Origin: an uncultured Clostridia bacterium
GTDB lineage: Bacteria; Bacillota; Clostridia; Christensenellales; CAG-138
Assembly (NCBI GenBank): GCA_934633985.1
Contig: CAKTYU010000004.1
Location: 11,519 to 75,518, forward strand
Reading direction: 5' to 3'
DNA length: 64,000 nt
Made by a program: the position numbers and the translations under genes. The notes below the pieces were generated by a model. That model did not search any database and was not told the origin of the DNA. It worked only from the letters and a program-made list of their open reading frames with translations. Shown here piece by piece: positions 3,351 through 12,043 of this stretch. The first letter of the stretch is position 1. Every line of letters starts with the position of its first letter.

Positions 3351-4535
3351 TTAGATGAGGTTCTTTTCGTCCTGCTTGCTGAACATGTGCAGCACGTTGC
3401 CGCCGAAGGTGAAGTTTATCCTGTTTCCGTAGCTGAACATCTGATGGGCGCTGCCCTCGAGGTCCATGGTGGGGATTATCACCACAACGTCCTTGCCGTT
3501 GGCCTCCACGTGGAGATGCACGGAGCTTCCCATCATCTCGGATACGTCCACCGTCGCGCTGATGTGCGCCGCCGCGTCGTCTGAGCACAGCATTATGTGC
3601 TCCGGCCTGATGCCGAGGGTTATATCCTGCGGCTCGGCGTTTTTGTCCCTAAGCGCCTGCTGCTTATCCTCGGGCAGGCACACCTTGGCGCCGTCCAGCT
3701 CAATATAGTACCCGTCGGCGTCCTTATCCAGCCTTGCATCGAAGAAGTTCATCTGGGGAGTGCCTATGAAGCCCGCCACGAAGAGGTTCGCGGGGTGGTT
3801 GAACACCTCCTGAGGGGTGCCTATCTGCTGTATGAAGCCGTCCCGCATTATTACTATGCGGTCGCCCAGGGTCATTGCCTCGGTCTGGTCGTGGGTCACG
3901 TAAACGAAGGTGGTATTTATCCTCTGACGCAGCTTTATAAGCTCGGCGCGCATCTGGTTGCGGAGCTTTGCGTCGAGGTTGGAGAGGGGCTCGTCCATCA
4001 GGAATACGGCAGGGTCGCGCACTATCGCCCGCCCTATGGCCACGCGCTGGCGCTGTCCGCCGGAGAGGGCCTTGGGCTTGCGGTCGAGATACTCGGTTAT
4101 GTCCAGTATTTCCGCCGCTTCCCTTACCTTGCGGTCTATCTCGTCCTTAGGGGTTTTTTTGAGCTTGAGCGAGAAGGCCATATTCTCATATACCGTCATG
4201 TGAGGATACAGCGCGTAGTTCTGGAATACCATGGCGATATTCCTGTCCTTGGGGGCCACGTCGTTCATAAGCTTGTCGCCTATGTACAGCTCGCCGGCGG
4301 TGATGTCCTCCAGCCCCGCTATCATACGCAGGGTAGTGGACTTTCCGCATCCGGAGGGGCCAACCAGCACGATAAATTCCTTGTCCGCGATGTCGAGGTT
4401 GAACTCCTGCACCGCCACGACGCCCTCGTCCGTGATCTGAAGGTTGTGCTTCTTTTCGGCCTGTTCCTTGGCCTTTTTCTTGGGCTCGCTGTTGGGGTAG
4501 ACCTTCTTGATGTTTTTCAGGCTTACTTCTGCCAT
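3351..4535 (-). CDS. msmX: orphan sugar ABC transporter ATP-binding protein (MsmX/MalK/UgpC type)
   Basis: Walker A GPSGCGKST, signature LSGGQRQR, Walker B FLMDEPLSNLD, MalK-type C-terminal domain. Close to my recollection of B. subtilis MsmX. No permease or binding-protein gene adjacent. ATG 4535 (MAEVSLKNIKK) chosen by homology; TTG 4571 is the ORF-track start. Confidence 0.9.
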   Translation of the reverse strand: MAEVSLKNIKKVYPNSEPKKKAKEQAEKKHNLQITDEGVVAVQEFNLDIADKEFIVLVGPSGCGKSTTLRMIAGLEDITAGELYIGDKLMNDVAPKDRNIAMVFQNYALYPHMTVYENMAFSLKLKKTPKDEIDRKVREAAEILDITEYLDRKPKALSGGQRQRVAIGRAIVRDPAVFLMDEPLSNLDAKLRNQMRAELIKLRQRINTTFVYVTHDQTEAMTLGDRIVIMRDGFIQQIGTPQEVFNHPANLFVAGFIGTPQMNFFDARLDKDADGYYIELDGAKVCLPEDKQQALRDKNAEPQDITLGIRPEHIMLCSDDAAAHISATVDVSEMMGSSVHLHVEANGKDVVVIIPTMDLEGSAHQMFSYGNRINFTFGGNVLHMFSKQDEKNLI

Positions 4536-4913
4536 ATTCTTTTTTCGGCTGCGACCGTCCTGCCTCCGCAATGAACGGCCTCGGGATAAAGGCGCTTATC
4601 CCATTACGACAGGTCTCCACACTGCCGCACCGCCAGCCGCGGCGGATCTTCTCCTTTTTTAGCCCCTCGCGCGTTATTTTTTAAGTGGAGTAACGCGCAG
4701 GGGTTAAATAGGCTTATTTTATTAAATATAGCACATCCGCCCGCGCCATTTCAACGCCTGCACGCCGTATTTTTTCACTTTTTCCATAAAGAAAAACGGC
4801 GAATTTGTTAAAGGATAAACTTTTCTTGAAAATGCCCCCGCCGATGCTATATTATAGTCTGTGTAGAAATATAATTTCCCCCACAGCTTCTTATGTTCCC
4901 CGGAGGACTTCAA

Positions 4914-5796: not shown

Positions 5797-5826
5797 AAAA
5801 AAGGCCGGATCGCTCCGGCCTTTTTG
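5797..5826. terminator. bidirectional terminator between convergent radical SAM and GNAT genes
   Basis: AAAAAA-GGCCGGA-TCGC-TCCGGCC-TTTTT. Confidence 0.75.
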
Positions 5827-5836
5827 TTTTGTCGCG

Positions 5837-6388
5837 TCATATTTCCTTTATCATGGTGAATAGGCCGAGGCGCTTACCGTCCCGGCTGTGTATCGCGTTG
5901 GGAAGCTCCCCCGTCACCCGATAGCCCAGCCCTTCATAAAGGCCCCGCGCCCTGTCGTTGCCCTCTATAAATTCCAGCTCCATCTGGCTTATGCCCATGG
6001 CCTTGGCCTGCTTCTCAAGGGCGTTCATCATTATCGTGCCGAGGCCTCTGCCCCAGTATTTGCTTATCACGCTTATGCCCAGCCGCGCCCTGTGCCGCAC
6101 CTTGGACTTGGTCATGCCGGCGCAGTTCAGCGAGCACAGGCCGGCAAGCTCGCCGTCTATATCGCACACCAGCAGCAGCGAGCCGTCCGACTCGTTGCTC
6201 ATCTGTATGAATGCCGCCTCGCTCTCTTCACTCCGTATTACCTCGTCCGGGTAGTGCATGAGGTATTCTGTCTCGCCGGAGCATATACGCATGAGCTCCA
6301 GCACCTTGCCGCCCTCGCAGGGCTCCGGGTTTCGCAGCACGCCGTATGTCTTATCCTTAAGCCGTATAAGCTCAGCATCGTATCTCAT
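5837..6388 (-). CDS. GNAT family N-acetyltransferase
   Basis: Acetyl-CoA binding motif YWGRGLGTIMM. ATG 6388 (MRYDAELIRL) overlaps the upstream stop as TGATG, so the 216-aa ORF-track version is probably over-extended. Confidence 0.8.
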   Translation of the reverse strand: MRYDAELIRLKDKTYGVLRNPEPCEGGKVLELMRICSGETEYLMHYPDEVIRSEESEAAFIQMSNESDGSLLLVCDIDGELAGLCSLNCAGMTKSKVRHRARLGISVISKYWGRGLGTIMMNALEKQAKAMGISQMELEFIEGNDRARGLYEGLGYRVTGELPNAIHSRDGKRLGLFTMIKEI

Positions 6389-7305
6389 CAGACGTCCTCG
6401 ACATTCTTCCTTCCCGCCCTGCGCCTGCGCTTGCCCTTCAGGCTCGCATCCATCTTGAGCGCACCGTGGGGGCATACGGTTATGCACTTGCCGCAGCGTA
6501 TGCAGTCGGTAGAGTTTGGCTGCTTATATACGGGTATATCCAAGCCGCAGGCCCTCTGGCATGCACCGCACTCCACGCAGCGGCTCTTGCTCACCCGCAT
6601 CCTTACCAGCGACACGGGATTCATAAGGCCATATATGGCTCCAAGAGGGCAAAGATAGCGGCAGAACGGGCGGAACACGAGTATAGAGCCCGTGATTATC
6701 ACCACCAGCAAAAACAGCTTCCATGTAAACAGCCAGCCTATGACGCTTCTAAGCTCCCGGTTCAGGGCGAGCAGAGGTATGCCGCCCAGCAGCGTGCCGG
6801 AGGGGCATATCCACTTGCAGAACCACGGCATGCCCACGCCGTATGAGCCCTTGGCAAGCATGGGCAGCAGTATGCACATGACCACGAGCACCACATAGCG
6901 CAGCTTGCGAAGGTAATTCTCGCCGGGCAGCCGCCGTATCTTTTTCTTTGGCGGTATCTTGAAGAGCAGGTCCTGCACCAGCCCGAAGGGGCATAGCCAG
7001 CCGCACACTATCCTGCCCAGCAGCGCGCCTATCGTTATAAGCGTGCCCAATACGTAAAACGGGAAACCGCTCACCCTTCCCGCCAGCGCATTTTGCAGCG
7101 AGCCCATGGGGCACGCGCCCCATGCGCCCGGGCAGGAATAGCAGTTCAGTCCCGGGACGCATATATTCTTGGCGCCGCCCTGATATATTGTCCCGTTTAT
7201 ATAGCCCGAGGCATAGCTGTTTGTCAGCAGCGTCCAGCAGGCCTGAAAATATACGCGCGCCCTAATAAAGGGGTGGTTCTTCTTTTTTCTTTTTTTCTTA
7301 TCCAA
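6388..7305 (-). CDS. integral-membrane 4Fe-4S polyferredoxin (NapH/MauN/RdhC-like)
   Basis: N-terminal CYSCPGAWGACP motif, several hydrophobic helices, and C-terminal 2x[4Fe-4S] motifs CVECGACQRAC and CIRCGKCITVCP. The only possible start is TTG 7305, which overlaps the upstream small ORF by 8 nt. Confidence 0.8.
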   Translation of the reverse strand: MDKKKRKKKNHPFIRARVYFQACWTLLTNSYASGYINGTIYQGGAKNICVPGLNCYSCPGAWGACPMGSLQNALAGRVSGFPFYVLGTLITIGALLGRIVCGWLCPFGLVQDLLFKIPPKKKIRRLPGENYLRKLRYVVLVVMCILLPMLAKGSYGVGMPWFCKWICPSGTLLGGIPLLALNRELRSVIGWLFTWKLFLLVVIITGSILVFRPFCRYLCPLGAIYGLMNPVSLVRMRVSKSRCVECGACQRACGLDIPVYKQPNSTDCIRCGKCITVCPHGALKMDASLKGKRRRRAGRKNVEDV

Positions 7306-7438
7306 GGCCGATACACTCCATGCATATCATTATGGCCTTTTGCATGACGGCGTTGGCCTCGCCCTTTACCGCGCCTATGACGATAAAGGCCAGCCCTGCC
7401 GCTAAAAGTGCCAATGATATAATACTACGCTTTTTCAT
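7298..7438 (-). CDS. 46-aa single-TM CXXC peptide (CD1871A-like), absent from the ORF track
   Basis: Own translation: MKKRSIISLALLAAGLAFIVIGAVKGEANAVMQKAIMICMECIGLG. Positive N-terminus, one TM helix, C-terminal C-M-E-C-I-G-L-G. Overlaps both neighbouring genes (14 nt upstream, 8 nt downstream). Matches my recollection of the NCBI 'CD1871A family CXXC motif-containing protein'. Confidence 0.65.
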   Translation of the reverse strand: MKKRSIISLALLAAGLAFIVIGAVKGEANAVMQKAIMICMECIGLG

Positions 7439-8351
7439 TCATCACCGTTTCTATAATGTCTATCCATTTCTGCTTGCTCTTTGCGCCGTGGACCACCGTT
7501 ATGAGCCTGCCCTCGGAGTCGTAAAACTTCGTCGTGGGCACCGTATTTACGCCCTGGAGCATGGTTTTTATCACGCTCGAGCTGGCGGTAATGTTGGTGA
7601 AATTGCCCCCTGCGCTTTCAAACATCTCCTTGGAGCTGAGCACCATATCGGGATTCTCCGGCATCGCGTCCGCCGAGAGGCCGATTATCCTGAAGCCGCT
7701 TCCCTTGTATTCCCTTGCCAATTCTGAGAGATCACCCATCTCTTGCAGACAGCTCGGTCAGGTACGGGTCCAGATGTTCACCATGGTCACGCTGCTCTTG
7801 CCGAACAGGCTGCTGCCGACGCTGCTGCCGTCCAGCGTGGTGGTCTCGAAGCTGATGGCCTTTGAGCCGCTCTCATAGGAGAGGGACTGCTTTGTATAGT
7901 TGCCGGCGTATGGCGTCCTTACTTTTTTCTCGGGCGCGGAGGTAGGAGTAGCCTCGGGCTTTTTCTCGTCCTTCTTTTCGTCCTTCTTGCCGTCCTTTTT
8001 GCCGTCCTGCTTCTCTTCCTTCCGCTCCTTGCCGCCGCTCTGCTTGTCCTCCTGTTTTTGGGGCCGCCTTGTGGGCGTTGGCGTGGGCTCGGGGGTGGGT
8101 ACCGGGGTAACTACGGGCTGCGGGGTGGTATATCCGGTTATGGCGACAAAGGTAGTGTCGTCGCCGTAATGCTCGTCGTCCAGATATCCTACGTCCACCA
8201 TGACAAAGGTGTCCGCCTGCGCCCTTTTCGCGCAGCCAAAGGAGCATAAAAAGCCCGCCGCCAGCACTGCCGGCAAAACCCTTTTGGCCGCCCTGTGAGC
8301 ATGTCCCCTTTTACTTGCGGCACATGCCGAATATTCTTCCTTCTTATACAT
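7425..8351 (-). CDS. membrane-anchored TlpA/ResA-type thioredoxin-fold protein with in-frame UGA (probable selenocysteine) at 7758-7760
   Basis: ORFs 7758..8351 and 7425..7739 share a frame (612 nt apart). Read-through gives ...GKSSVTMVNIWTRT-[UGA]-PSCLQEMGDLSELAREYKGSGFRIIGLSAD...VPTTKFYDSEGRL. The UGA is at the first Cys of the WCxxC motif. N-terminal hydrophobic anchor with possible lipobox, then a Pro/Thr- and Lys/Glu-rich linker. Confidence 0.7.
7723..7749 (-). promoter_or_regulatory. candidate bacterial SECIS hairpin
   Basis: mRNA after UGA: CCGAGCUG-U-CUG-CA-AGAGAU-GGGUG-AUCUCU-CAG-A. Six-bp upper stem, GGGUG apical loop, 3-4 bp lower stem with a 2-nt bulge. The first loop G is 21 nt after the UGA. 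Confidence 0.55.
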
Positions 8352-8357
8352 GATTTG

Positions 8358-8386
8358 ATTATAAATCCCGCGAAAAAGGCTGTCAA
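8358..8386 (-). promoter_or_regulatory. consensus sigma-A promoter placed for a leaderless transcript
   Basis: Minus strand reads TTGACA (8386-8381), 17-nt spacer, TATAAT (8363-8358), then CAAATC and ATG (8351). The A of ATG is 7 nt after the -10 hexamer. No SD sequence is possible. Confidence 0.6.
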
Positions 8387-8419: not shown

Positions 8420-9001
8420 TTAGGCCATAAGGGCGGCAAGCGCGCCGGTATGCTCCAGAAGTATCTTTAGGCCCAGGAGCATGAGTATGGCGCCTCCGGT
8501 CAGCTCCGCCTTCGACTTGTACCTCGTGCCGAAAACGCTGCCCACCTTTACTCCCGCCATGGATATTATGCAGGTGGTGCAGCCTATCATGCCCGCCGCC
8601 GTGGCTATGCTCACATCGAGGAAGGCAAAGGTTATGCCCGCCGCCAGAGCGTCTATGCTGGTGGCCACCGCAAGCATGAGCATGGCCTTAAAGGAGAGCG
8701 AGCCGCTGTCCCTGCCCGCGTCCTCGTCCCTTGAGAGCGCCTCCCGTATCATATTTGCGCCTATGAGTGAGAGCAATATGAAGGCCACCCAATGGTCTAT
8801 GGACTCTATCGCGCCGCTGAAGCGCGAGCCCAGGAAGTATCCTATCGTGGGCATTAGCGCCTGAAAGCCGCCGAACCAAAGCCCGACTATGGCGGCCTTT
8901 TTGAAATTTATGCGCTTCACGGCAAGGCCCTTGCATATCGATACGGCGAAGGCGTCCATGGACAGGCCGACGGCTAAAATAAACAGCTCCAACGCGCTCA
9001 T
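8420..9001 (-). CDS. mntP: manganese efflux pump MntP
   Basis: 193 aa, about 6 TM helices. N-terminal LSMDAFAVS and internal [10 protein letters not shown] repeats typical of MntP. Confidence 0.85.
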
Positions 9002-9120: not shown

Positions 9121-11763
9121 TTACCCCTGCAGCTCCGCAAGGCGATGCTCCAGCTTGGATAGCATATCCTTAGCGACCTCTAACTTGCCCTTTTCCTCGT
9201 TTATGACCTTTTCCGGGGCCTTGGCGACGAAGCCCGGGTTGCTGAGCTTGCCCTCTGCGCGGGCGACCTCGCCCTTCATGCGGCTTATCTCCTTGCTCAC
9301 CCTCTCTATTTCCTTATCTATGTCGATAAGCTGATCCAGAGGTATGAAGGCCTCGCCCATGGCGCATACGGCGTTTACCGCTCCCTTGGGTATGCCGCCC
9401 TTATCCTGCTGCACTATCACGTTCTCCGCGCCCGCCAGCTTCATAAGGTATGCCCTTGCCATCTCGAAGGCGGGGGCGTTCTCCGCGGGGGTCACCATGT
9501 ATACGGCGGTGCGCCTTGCGGGGGGTACGTTCATCTCCGCCCGTAGGTTCCTTATGGAGCGGATAACGTCCATGACGCCCTCCATCTCCTCCGCCTCCTT
9601 TGCAAACTCCAGCGCGTCGCTGTGCTTGGGCCAGCTTGCGCACATTATGGTCTCCTCCGCGTTGGGCAGGCTCTGATAAAGCTCCTCCGTTATGAACGGC
9701 ATGAAGGGATGGAGCAGCTTCATGGAATCCCCCAGCACCCGCACAAGTATGGACTTCACGTTTGCCTTGGCGCTCTCGTCCTCACCGTAAAGGCGGGGCT
9801 TCGCCATCTCTATGTACCAGTCGCAGAACTCGGTCCATATAAAATCATATACCTTCTGCGCGGCGACGTTGAGCTCGAAGTTATCCATGTTGGAGGTGAC
9901 CTCCCCCACGACGGCGTTGAGCCTGTGGAGTATCCACTTGTCGGCTATATCCAGCCTCGCCATGTCTATATCGCCTATCTTATCGTCCCCTAAGTTCATC
10001 TGGACAAAGCGGGAGGCGTTGTAGACCTTGTTGCAGAAGTTCCTTGCGGCCTCCACCTTTTTATTGGAAAAGCGCATGTCGTTGCCGGCGCTGTTTCCGG
10101 TGACGAGGCTGAAGCGCAGTGAATCCGCGCCGTAGTCCTTTATTATTTCGAGGGGATCTATGCCGTTGCCCAGGGATTTGGACATCTTGCGGCCCAGCTC
10201 GTCGCGGACTATGCCGTGTATGTACACCGTGTCGAAGGGTATCCTGCCCATGACCTTGGTTCCGAACACTATCATTCTGGCTACCCAGAAGAAGATTATG
10301 TCGTAGCCGGTGACGAGGGTGCTGGTGGGGTAGAAGTATTCCAGCTCGGGGGTCTTGTCCGGCCAGCCCAGCGTGGAGAAGGGCCACATGCCGGAGCTGA
10401 ACCACGTATCCAGCACGTCCTCGTCCTGATGCACCTTGGCTCCGCATACCGGGCATTTTTCCGGCGGGTCCAAGGTTACCTCGATATGGCCGCAGTCGTT
10501 ATTCTCGCAGTAGTAGGCGGGTATCCTGTGGCCCCACCAGAGCTGGCGGGATATGCACCAATCCCTGATGTTGTACATCCAGTTGAAGTAGGTCTTGTTG
10601 AACCTTTCCGGCACGAACCTCACCTCGCCGTCCTCCACCACGCGGATAGCCTCCTTTGCAAGGGGCTTCATGCTCACGAACCACTGGAGGCTGGTGAGGG
10701 GCTCGACGGTATTGTGGCAGCGATAGCATACGCCTACGTTGTGGGCGTAATCCTCTATCTTTACGAGGTTGCCGCTCTTTTCCATATCCGCCACGATAGC
10801 CCTGCGGCACTCCATGGTAGTCATGCCGGTATAGGGCGCTCCCAGCTCGTTGAGGTACCCGTCGTCGGTGAATACCCTTATGCGGGGCAGATTGTGGCGC
10901 ACGCCCACCTCGAAATCGTTGGGGTCGTGGCAGGGGGTGATCTTAACCGCGCCGGAGCCGAACTCCTTATCCACGTATTCGTCCGCAACTATGGGTATCT
11001 CGCGGCCCACTATTGGCACCACCACGGTCTTGCCGATAAGCCCCGCATAGCGCTCGTCCTCCGGGTTCACGGCTATGGCGGTATCGCCGGGTATGGTTTC
11101 GGGGCGGGTGGTGGCGCAGATTATGGAATAGCTCTTGTCGGGCGCGTCATAGCGGACGTGCCAGAGGTGGCTGGCCTGCTCCTCGTATTCCACCTCGGCG
11201 TCGGAAAGCGCAGTCTGGCATACGGGGCACCAGTTGATTATCCTGTCGTCCCTATATATCAGGCCTTCTTTGTAAAGGTCTACGAATACCTTGGTTACGG
11301 CCCTGTTGCAGCCGTCGTCCATGGTGAAGCGCTCGCGCTCCCAGTCGCAGGAGGAGCCCATCTTGCGAAGCTGCTTTACTATTGCCCCGCCGTACTCGCG
11401 CCGCCACTCCCAGGCGCGCCGGAGGAACGCCTCGCGGCCTATGTCGCGCTTGTCTATGCCCTCCTTTGCCATCTCGGTAACTATCTTGACCTCGGTGGCT
11501 ATGGAGGCGTGATCCGTGCCGGGGAGCCACAGCGCCTCATAGCCGCTCATGCGCTTATAGCGTATTATGGAATCCTGCAGCGTGTTGTCCAGCGCGTGTC
11601 CCATGTGCAGCTTGCCGGTTATGTTTGGCGGCGGCATAACTATGCAGTAAGGCTTCTTTTCGGGGTTGGGCTCCGCATGGAAGTAGCCCTTGCTTTCCCA
11701 GCCTTCGTAAAGCCTGCTTTCCACATCGGAATGGTCATAGGTCTTGGGCAGTTCTTTGCTCAT
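9121..11763 (-). CDS. valS: valine--tRNA ligase
   Basis: 880 aa. HIGH-type motif PPNITGKLHMGHAL, KMSKS motif present, C-terminal coiled coil. Confidence 0.97.
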   Translation of the reverse strand: MSKELPKTYDHSDVESRLYEGWESKGYFHAEPNPEKKPYCIVMPPPNITGKLHMGHALDNTLQDSIIRYKRMSGYEALWLPGTDHASIATEVKIVTEMAKEGIDKRDIGREAFLRRAWEWRREYGGAIVKQLRKMGSSCDWERERFTMDDGCNRAVTKVFVDLYKEGLIYRDDRIINWCPVCQTALSDAEVEYEEQASHLWHVRYDAPDKSYSIICATTRPETIPGDTAIAVNPEDERYAGLIGKTVVVPIVGREIPIVADEYVDKEFGSGAVKITPCHDPNDFEVGVRHNLPRIRVFTDDGYLNELGAPYTGMTTMECRRAIVADMEKSGNLVKIEDYAHNVGVCYRCHNTVEPLTSLQWFVSMKPLAKEAIRVVEDGEVRFVPERFNKTYFNWMYNIRDWCISRQLWWGHRIPAYYCENNDCGHIEVTLDPPEKCPVCGAKVHQDEDVLDTWFSSGMWPFSTLGWPDKTPELEYFYPTSTLVTGYDIIFFWVARMIVFGTKVMGRIPFDTVYIHGIVRDELGRKMSKSLGNGIDPLEIIKDYGADSLRFSLVTGNSAGNDMRFSNKKVEAARNFCNKVYNASRFVQMNLGDDKIGDIDMARLDIADKWILHRLNAVVGEVTSNMDNFELNVAAQKVYDFIWTEFCDWYIEMAKPRLYGEDESAKANVKSILVRVLGDSMKLLHPFMPFITEELYQSLPNAEETIMCASWPKHSDALEFAKEAEEMEGVMDVIRSIRNLRAEMNVPPARRTAVYMVTPAENAPAFEMARAYLMKLAGAENVIVQQDKGGIPKGAVNAVCAMGEAFIPLDQLIDIDKEIERVSKEISRMKGEVARAEGKLSNPGFVAKAPEKVINEEKGKLEVAKDMLSKLEHRLAELQG

Positions 11764-11796: not shown

Positions 11797-12030
11797 CAAT
11801 AAAAAAATCCGCCCCGCCCTTTCATTCAAAGGACGAGCGGACCCGCGGTACCACCTTTATTGAGCGCAGCGCGCTCCTCTTTTGCGCCGTAACGGGGCGC
11901 GCCCGCCGGGGGCTACCTGTTATTTCACCTCCGGGGCTCCTAAGCGACCTTCTGCCCTCTCCTTGCAAACAGCCCTCTCAGCCGGCGGGGCCGTCTCTCT
12001 TGTGCGGTATGAGCGCATACTCCTCTTAAT
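11797..12030 (-). promoter_or_regulatory. T-box leader (valine-specific) controlling valS
   Basis: Conserved T-box AAUAAAGGUGGUACCGCGGG (RC of 11841-11860). Overlapping terminator TCCGCTCGTCCTTT-GAATG-AAAGGGCGGGGCGGA + TTTTTTT (11801-11841). Candidate specifier GUC (Val) in AGAAG-GUC-GC at 11946-11948. The 5' end is approximate. Confidence 0.85.
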
Positions 12031-12043
12031 CCTTGCCATTATT

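Follow-up and report, generated by a model that had tools for sequence, protein, structure and literature searches.

Within the 64-kb window analysed here (positions 11,519 to 75,518 of contig CAKTYU010000004.1 from an uncultured Clostridia bacterium), two minus-strand open reading frames (ORFs) are separated by an in-frame UGA at 7760-7758. Comparison with relatives makes it very probable that this UGA is a genuine selenocysteine (Sec) codon and that the two ORFs are one gene of 308 codons (7425..8351, UGA included), encoding a UxxC TlpA-like lipoprotein. The evidence lies in a thioredoxin-like fold that crosses the stop, a UGA retained in every relative examined, purifying selection on both of its sides, and a hairpin conserved just downstream of it.

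Reading frame, fold and putative anchor of the read-through product

The first ORF (8351..7758) closes at the TGA, and its frame runs on to a TAG at 7427-7425. As a preliminary description of this DNA had stated, translation places the second ORF (7739..7425) in the frame of the first, with starts 612 nt apart and only the TGA and six sense codons (P-S-C-L-Q-E) between the two, the ATG at 7739 being the mechanical start of the second. Reading through yields a 308-aa product, ...MVNIWTRT-U-PSCLQEMGDLSEL...VPTTKFYDSEGRLI..., or, over a longer stretch around the UGA, ...SSVTMVNIWTRT-U-PSCLQEMGDLSELAREYKGSGFRIIGLSAD...VPTTKFYDSEGRLITVVHGAKSKQKWIDIIETVMNEKA. Both halves are annotated as separate hypothetical proteins in public metagenome-assembled genome (MAG) records (SPL16_05750/05755, IJN83_01975). 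The extent proposed for the complete gene follows from translation, Pfam matches and a single HMMER domain across the stop, and the proposed Sec codon (7758..7760, motif U-P-S-C) from the TGA column in relatives and from its alignment to the first Cys of CxxC.

Pfam, NCBIfam and PDB were queried with the read-through product, with C written for U. AhpC-TSA (PF00578) was matched at E=7e-10 with 39.3 bits against a cut-off of 26, and Redoxin (PF08534) at E=4e-9 with 36.8 bits against a cut-off of 26.6. Against PDB, one HMMER domain covering query residues 19-154 of a 167-aa construct spans the stop, and its matches are ResA (4nmu, 1st9), TlpA (1jfu, 4txo) and many lipoproteins described as 'thioredoxin family'. 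Because this single domain covers the UGA position, one predicted fold crosses the stop, and neither fragment by itself makes up a domain. The preliminary description had read the locus as a TlpA/ResA layout with the stop at the nucleophilic Cys, and alignment to ResA 4nmu bears this out: vNIWtrtCpsClqEM lies over lNFWgtwCkpCekEM, which sets the UGA at the first, nucleophilic Cys of CxxC. The W-x3-CxxC arrangement after strand β1 is present (NIWTRT-U-PSC over NFWGTWCKPC), as is the cis-Pro loop (VPTTKFYD over LPTSFLID). On the Pfam, NCBIfam and PDB matches together, the predicted TlpA/ResA-like thioredoxin-fold domain occupies 7437..7874 (minus strand, approximately residues 160-305).

Narrower family assignments were tried and rejected. 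The NCBIfam model for ResA proper (NF002854, cytochrome c maturation) gave 47.5 bits where its cut-off is 170, and no resB, resC or ccdA lies in the neighbourhood; the TlpA and StoA equivalogs reached 25 bits against 230 and 20 against 210, and the DsbE match was likewise far under its cut-off. None of the curated thioredoxin-like selenoprotein models (SaoT NF040730, NF047660, NF041383) was matched at E <= 0.01 among the nine NCBIfam hits.

The N-terminal part suggests export and lipid anchoring. A putative lipoprotein-type signal peptide ending in the lipobox ...LCSFG-C (Cys40) can be read from the sequence at 8232..8294 (minus strand), and all homologues carry a hydrophobic stretch with a lipobox-like G-C-A/S motif. 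Orthologues and paralogues have the motif L-x-[ST]-x-G-C-A in common, with the variants LCT[FMA]GCA, LLASGCA, LLTAGCS and LCISGCA, and classical LSGC lipoboxes are found in the Cys homologues. Between the putative lipid anchor and the catalytic domain, translation and low-complexity matches place a linker rich in Pro, Thr, Glu and Lys (7902..8126, minus strand), which gives spurious TonB/PspA/PARP-type low-complexity matches in Pfam and NCBIfam. The product would thus be a lipid-anchored, extracytoplasmic TlpA-like oxidoreductase, with anchor and topology predicted from these features.

Translation may not begin at ATG 8351; an internal TTG or GTG just ahead of the signal peptide is a possible alternative. 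By consensus match alone, a sigma-70-type promoter-like site (TTGACA-17 nt-TATAAT, 12/12 matches) lies at 8358..8386 on the minus strand. Because this site stops only 6 nt 5' of ATG 8351, with no Shine-Dalgarno sequence in between, the alternatives are a leaderless mRNA and a true start at the internal TTG or GTG before the signal peptide, which some gene callers selected.

Conservation of the UGA among relatives

In a collection of 5.8 billion proteins, all 36 homologues were N- or C-terminal fragments broken at the stop, and none was full length. The N-terminal fragments end ...NIWTRT; the C-terminal fragments, of approximately 100-109 aa, start MGDLSEL... or M/V-SCLQEMG.... One of the latter (P0017, 101 aa, from a 114.9-kb ENA contig) turns unrelated after ...VPTTKFYD (FRGQARNGG...), as would follow from a frameshift or a misassembly of that contig. 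When the DNA of relatives was fetched, the first 15 loci all carried TGA at the identical column. A scan of GTDB species representatives returned nine loci in Clostridia MAGs, again with TGA in each; these include one MAG labelled Acutalibacteraceae, a copy from 'Clostridiales bacterium W0P31.004' that is 97% identical to the window gene and presumably comes from the same species, and two paralogues of one MAG (L029, L032) that are 32% identical to each other. A metagenome scan gave TGA in 80 of 80 loci returned, many of them on contigs labelled human gut: 68 are window-type (identity to the window gene 89-97%, with just two below 95%), 11 are paralogue-type with the active site NVWSTT*GICVDEM, and 1 is from camel.

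The residues flanking the TGA vary (TRT, TQT, TTT, TQA, TMT or STT before it; PS, VS, AS, TS, LS, GS or GI after it), and the TGA is kept in homologues of 47% (NLWTMT*PSCISEMGHLAEL) and approximately 36% identity (NFWSTT*GSCLSEMGRLAEL). Among the examined relatives, down to 32% identity, the column is never TAA, TAG, TGC or TGT. The orthologue alignment proposed in the preliminary description therefore came out in favour of its reading, with TGA in every orthologue and paralogue and neither Cys nor another stop. Directly 5' of the UGA, the Thr codon (7761-7763) is ACC in all 22 Thr-bearing sequences, with other Thr codons varying freely; this invariance may reflect a context requirement for Sec decoding or for anti-termination.

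By the Nei-Gojobori method, dN/dS (the ratio of nonsynonymous to synonymous divergence) ranges from 0.09 to 0.33 on either side of the TGA, at a dS among orthologues of 0.3-1.5. These values indicate purifying selection on both sides of the UGA, with synonymous sites turned over and the TGA and frame preserved. Because the TGA occupies the same column in all relatives examined and selection on either side of it is purifying, the codon is not a lesion.

Homologues with Cys appear only at greater distance. In an exhaustive search of representatives, every match of >=47% identity was a fragment starting after the TGA, and the matches of <=44% identity were full-length CxxC lipoproteins (P0039-P0061; for example WATYCNPCLQEMPDLGE and MINVWATYCNPCLQEMPDLGE) whose Cys aligns to the UGA. 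By their sequences, the fragments and the full-length CxxC homologues form what is recognisably a classical Sec/Cys pair.

A paralogous family of UGA-containing TlpA-like genes (L032 8233-9126; L021 980-1780; L105-L115) is 32-36% identical to the window protein, with active sites NIWTTT*GICVSEMGRLAKL or NVWSTT*GICVDEMGRLARL. It has its own hairpin, CGAGAU-GGGNC-GUCUCG, and no CD1871A or NapH-like genes, which follow the window gene, come after it. Paralogue and orthologue occur together in one MAG (CAYMPG01; L029 and L032), where both keep UGA and hairpin, and window-type and paralogue-type genes also co-occur in some metagenome assemblies (e.g. ERZ860322, ORPH01). Because two anciently diverged paralogues in a single MAG both retain UGA and hairpin, the best indirect argument for productive decoding of UGA comes from genomes that hold the pair, where its retention would otherwise be hard to explain.

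The downstream hairpin and the weighing of alternative decodings

Folding, conservation and the constraints of the bacterial Sec insertion sequence (bSECIS) model point to a putative SECIS hairpin inside the coding region at 7724..7748 (minus strand). Its upper stem pairs AGAGAU (7743-7738) with AUCUCU (7732-7727) around the loop GGGUG (7737-7733), its lower stem pairs CUG (7748-7746) with CAG (7726-7724), a 2-nt bulge separates the two, and the loop opens with a G that stands 21 nt past the UGA. The preliminary description had given these stems, bulge, loop and position correctly, and had set the limits of the element 1 nt off, at 7723-7749. The bSECIS model calls for a loop of 3-9 nt with a G in its first two positions, a stem of >=4 bp, a distance of 16-37 nt from the UGA and a minimum free energy of <= -7.5 kcal/mol (PMC13188914); in the window hairpin the loop (GGGUG) is 5 nt long, the 6-bp stem is joined by the 3-bp lower stem, the spacing is 20 nt and the energy -7.9 kcal/mol.

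Five core base pairs and the geometry are kept in all 20 distinct TGA-bearing sequences. Pair 27-43 is A-U in 16 of them and C-G in 4, where Ser or Asp has replaced Gln and Ala has replaced Ser; at pair 28-42 both G-C and G-U occur; and a seventh pair, G-C, is added in the divergent sequences that have Ser ahead of the Glu codon (L018/L020, L021, L032). Synonymous codon use is also restricted: normalised synonymous-codon entropy is 0.125 in the stem codons (+5 to +11) versus 0.52-0.61 in the rest of the gene, with Gln as CAA in 20/20, Glu as GAG in 25/25, Leu as CTC in 23/25 and Ser as TCA in 21/21. The two CTT Leu codons retain a G·U pair, and the third base of the loop Gly codon varies freely. 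The hairpin is present in every TGA-bearing sequence and is missing at the corresponding place in all three Cys homologues with DNA fetched. As RNA-level evidence for a SECIS this is supportive rather than conclusive, with conservation giving it weight and covariation being thin.

Several results weigh against Sec decoding. Taken alone, the hairpin is thermodynamically unremarkable and is no stand-alone evidence: its folding z-score is -0.69, with 44 of 200 shuffles folding as well, and 15% of all TGA trinucleotides in the window precede an equivalent hairpin (perfect, of >=6 bp, with a G at loop position 1 or 2 and at a permitted spacing). Several orthologue hairpins reach only -4.4 to -6.2 kcal/mol, weaker than the -7.5 limit, and Rfam at 7650-7800 returned no SECIS or other family at E <= 10, only one chance snoRNA match. 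Covariation is confined to a single pair and to three or four lineages that are related, perhaps one or two events, and the stem overlaps the conserved residues E-M-G-x-L, so that protein constraint explains part of its conservation. Nor was Sec machinery seen in a search that covered the window and short flanks, its own and those of related loci: the window holds no selA, selB, selD or tRNA-Sec, there is no sel gene in the 10 kb beyond its left end (via L016), a tRNA search of 13 related loci found no tRNA-Sec, and no sel gene turned up among the paralogue neighbours (Pfam) or in other fetched flanks. A scan of the window for further conserved in-frame TGAs gave no convincing case.

The lack of Sec machinery in the regions searched, with the weakness of the hairpin, would favour read-through without selenium, by a near-cognate or suppressor tRNA (Trp, Cys, Gly) or a partly reassigned UGA with the hairpin as stimulator. 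We consider this improbable. Recoding falls exactly on the catalytic Cys position of a redox motif, a hallmark of Sec/Cys pairs; CxxC chemistry would be lost with Trp or Gly as the nucleophile residue; and a loop GG at 21 nt fits the SelB-dependent bSECIS model. UGA is, moreover, a normal stop here. A code with UGA reassigned to Trp or Gly was rejected because TGA terminates 7 of the 39 genes in the window.

A further reading takes the UGA as a true stop, with the C-terminal 104-110 aa re-initiated at an ATG or GTG to give two proteins, perhaps a split thioredoxin fold. An ATG does lie six codons past the UGA in the window, a GTG directly follows it in some lineages, and gene callers use both. 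The residues between UGA and first ATG (x-S-C-L-Q-E in the window type, x-S-C-L/M-Q/S-E overall) are nonetheless conserved and hold the resolving Cys, which an ATG-started product would lose, and in several lineages the codon after the UGA is CCG, GCG, ACG, GGC or GGA, none of them a start. Because the conserved resolving Cys precedes the ATG and these non-start codons follow the UGA, the C-terminal half cannot be made alone with its active site. The break would also split one domain, parting strand β1 from the active-site helix, and a mere terminator would have no need to be always UGA and never UAA or UAG. This two-protein reading is accordingly very hard to credit. A pseudogene, in which a strain-level nonsense mutation turned TGC or TGT into TGA in a Cys-type TlpA-like gene, would suit the public annotation of the halves as separate hypothetical proteins, but it is almost certainly wrong: the column is constant down to 32% identity and through all 80 metagenome loci with no relative carrying Cys or another stop, dN/dS is well under 1 on both sides, and a dS of 0.3-1.5 excludes a single clone. 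Finally, no weight is left for a false stop made by sequencing or assembly error, with the same TGA in >100 contigs that were assembled independently in different studies and come from several hosts, including human, pig, camel and buffalo.

Proposed function, known relatives and neighbouring genes

If the UGA is decoded as Sec, the coding-region hairpin at 7748..7724 would act as the SECIS and recruit SelB·GTP·Sec-tRNASec to the ribosome, and Sec would be inserted at residue 198 (U198). Its selenol would stand in place of the nucleophilic thiol and could pair with the resolving Cys, three positions further on, as a selenenylsulfide (U198-C201). At the cell surface, the exported lipoprotein might then serve as a reductase of disulfides or other oxidised sulfur compounds, and its re-reduction could fall to the products of the next two genes, an outward-facing CxxC peptide of the CD1871A family and a NapH-like Fe-S protein, which would pass electrons across the membrane instead of CcdA/DsbD. 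From sequence we infer that Sec is inserted, that SelB binds, that the protein is lipid-anchored with this topology, and that it is linked to its two co-operonic partners; insertion by hairpin-recruited SelB is well supported by such reasoning, and re-reduction by the two partners is speculation from synteny.

Prokaryotic surveys catalogue Prx-like thiol:disulfide oxidoreductase selenoproteins (PF00578; UxxC/UxxU) and 'thiol-disulfide isomerase-like' / TlpA-family (cd02966) UxxC selenoproteins, and such Prx-like and TlpA-like proteins have been catalogued for about twenty years (PMC13188914). The window protein fits this known class and will not surprise a specialist: it has the AhpC-TSA/Redoxin/TlpA-type fold, probable Sec for the first Cys of CxxC, a SECIS-like coding-region hairpin just 3' of the UGA, and Cys homologues. 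Compared by description, its clade differs from the catalogued proteins in being a lipoprotein of gut Clostridia with a long Pro/Lys-rich tether that heads a cassette with CD1871A and NapH-like genes. With the Cys-type ResA, TlpA, StoA and CcmG(DsbE) of Firmicutes and Proteobacteria it shares the fold, the W-xxx-CxxC motif, the VPT cis-Pro loop and a putatively membrane-tethered, extracytoplasmic location; unlike them, it would carry Sec for Cys, and CD1871A and NapH-like partners rather than cytochrome c maturation genes (resBC, ccdA) lie beside the gene. SaoT and the curated NCBIfam selenoproteins (PMC13188914) resemble it in being UxxC, thioredoxin-like proteins of anaerobes, but the window protein matches none of their models and its gene neighbourhood is different.

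While Sec at the first CxxC position of a TlpA/Prx-like fold is long established, the partnership within the cassette may hide something new. The annotation would change, from the pair of 'hypothetical proteins' given in all public records seen to one probable selenoprotein gene. The window-type gene recurs in human gut metagenomes. If it is a selenoprotein, Sec use in this Clostridia lineage (one related genome is labelled Acutalibacteraceae) is implied without being shown, and a cell-surface thiol:disulfide reductase would depend on dietary or host selenium. A literature search on Acutalibacteraceae and selenocysteine found nothing.

The first partner gene (7298..7438, minus strand) overlaps the putative selenoprotein gene by 14 nt and encodes a 46-aa CD1871A-family membrane peptide (NCBIfam NF040920, E=4.5e-16) with an N-terminal transmembrane helix and a C-terminal CMEC motif (...ICMECIGLG). 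Across loci the peptide has 46-50 aa and ends ...IC[ML]ECIG[LI]G, and its small ORF is uncalled in Cys-type contigs; a literature search for 'CD1871A' found nothing. Overlapping it in turn by 8 nt, the second gene (6388..7305, minus strand) encodes a polytopic, NapH-like membrane protein that carries CxxxCP motifs and, at its C-terminus, a 2x[4Fe-4S] ferredoxin domain. This protein is matched by Pfam Fer4_5 (E=2.7e-21), and its NCBIfam NapH/MauN subfamily match (E=2e-23) is under cut-off. The trio of TlpA-like lipoprotein, CD1871A peptide and NapH-like protein, with mntP ahead, is syntenic in all orthologous loci. A Cys-type version occurs in other Clostridia, beside two of three Cys homologues (L033 188-1672 and L116 200-1824, absent beside L034). 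In these Cys-type cassettes the three genes follow in the same order, identity in the catalytic domain is 36-43% and the peptide ends ...ICxECIGxG; they differ in having TGT (Cys) where the window has TGA, and in lacking the hairpin. Because the synteny is conserved in the Sec clade and beside two of three Cys homologues, the three translationally coupled genes may conceivably constitute an uncharacterised extracytoplasmic disulfide-reduction pathway of Clostridia, with a Sec-upgraded terminal reductase and an Fe-S protein replacing CcdA/DsbD, a proposal that we hold tentatively and consider unlikely as it stands.

Directly upstream of the putative selenoprotein gene, an MntP-type manganese efflux gene (8420-9001, minus strand) is found in every orthologous locus examined; this adjacency may simply be synteny, or it may reflect a functional tie through envelope metal or redox homeostasis. 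On the other side, the NapH-like gene is followed by a GNAT acetyltransferase gene (5837-6388, minus strand), whose likely ATG overlaps the NapH-like stop and which is present in L005, L009 and L016 and absent in L001 and L004. At 5798-5825 the sequence can form a strong hairpin that resembles a bidirectional terminator. Elsewhere in the window, two Rfam families score above gathering: a malK-I RNA (4530-4708, minus strand, 137.6 bits) upstream of a MalK-type ABC-transporter ATPase, and a T-box leader (11826-12042, minus strand, 112.5 bits) upstream of valS.

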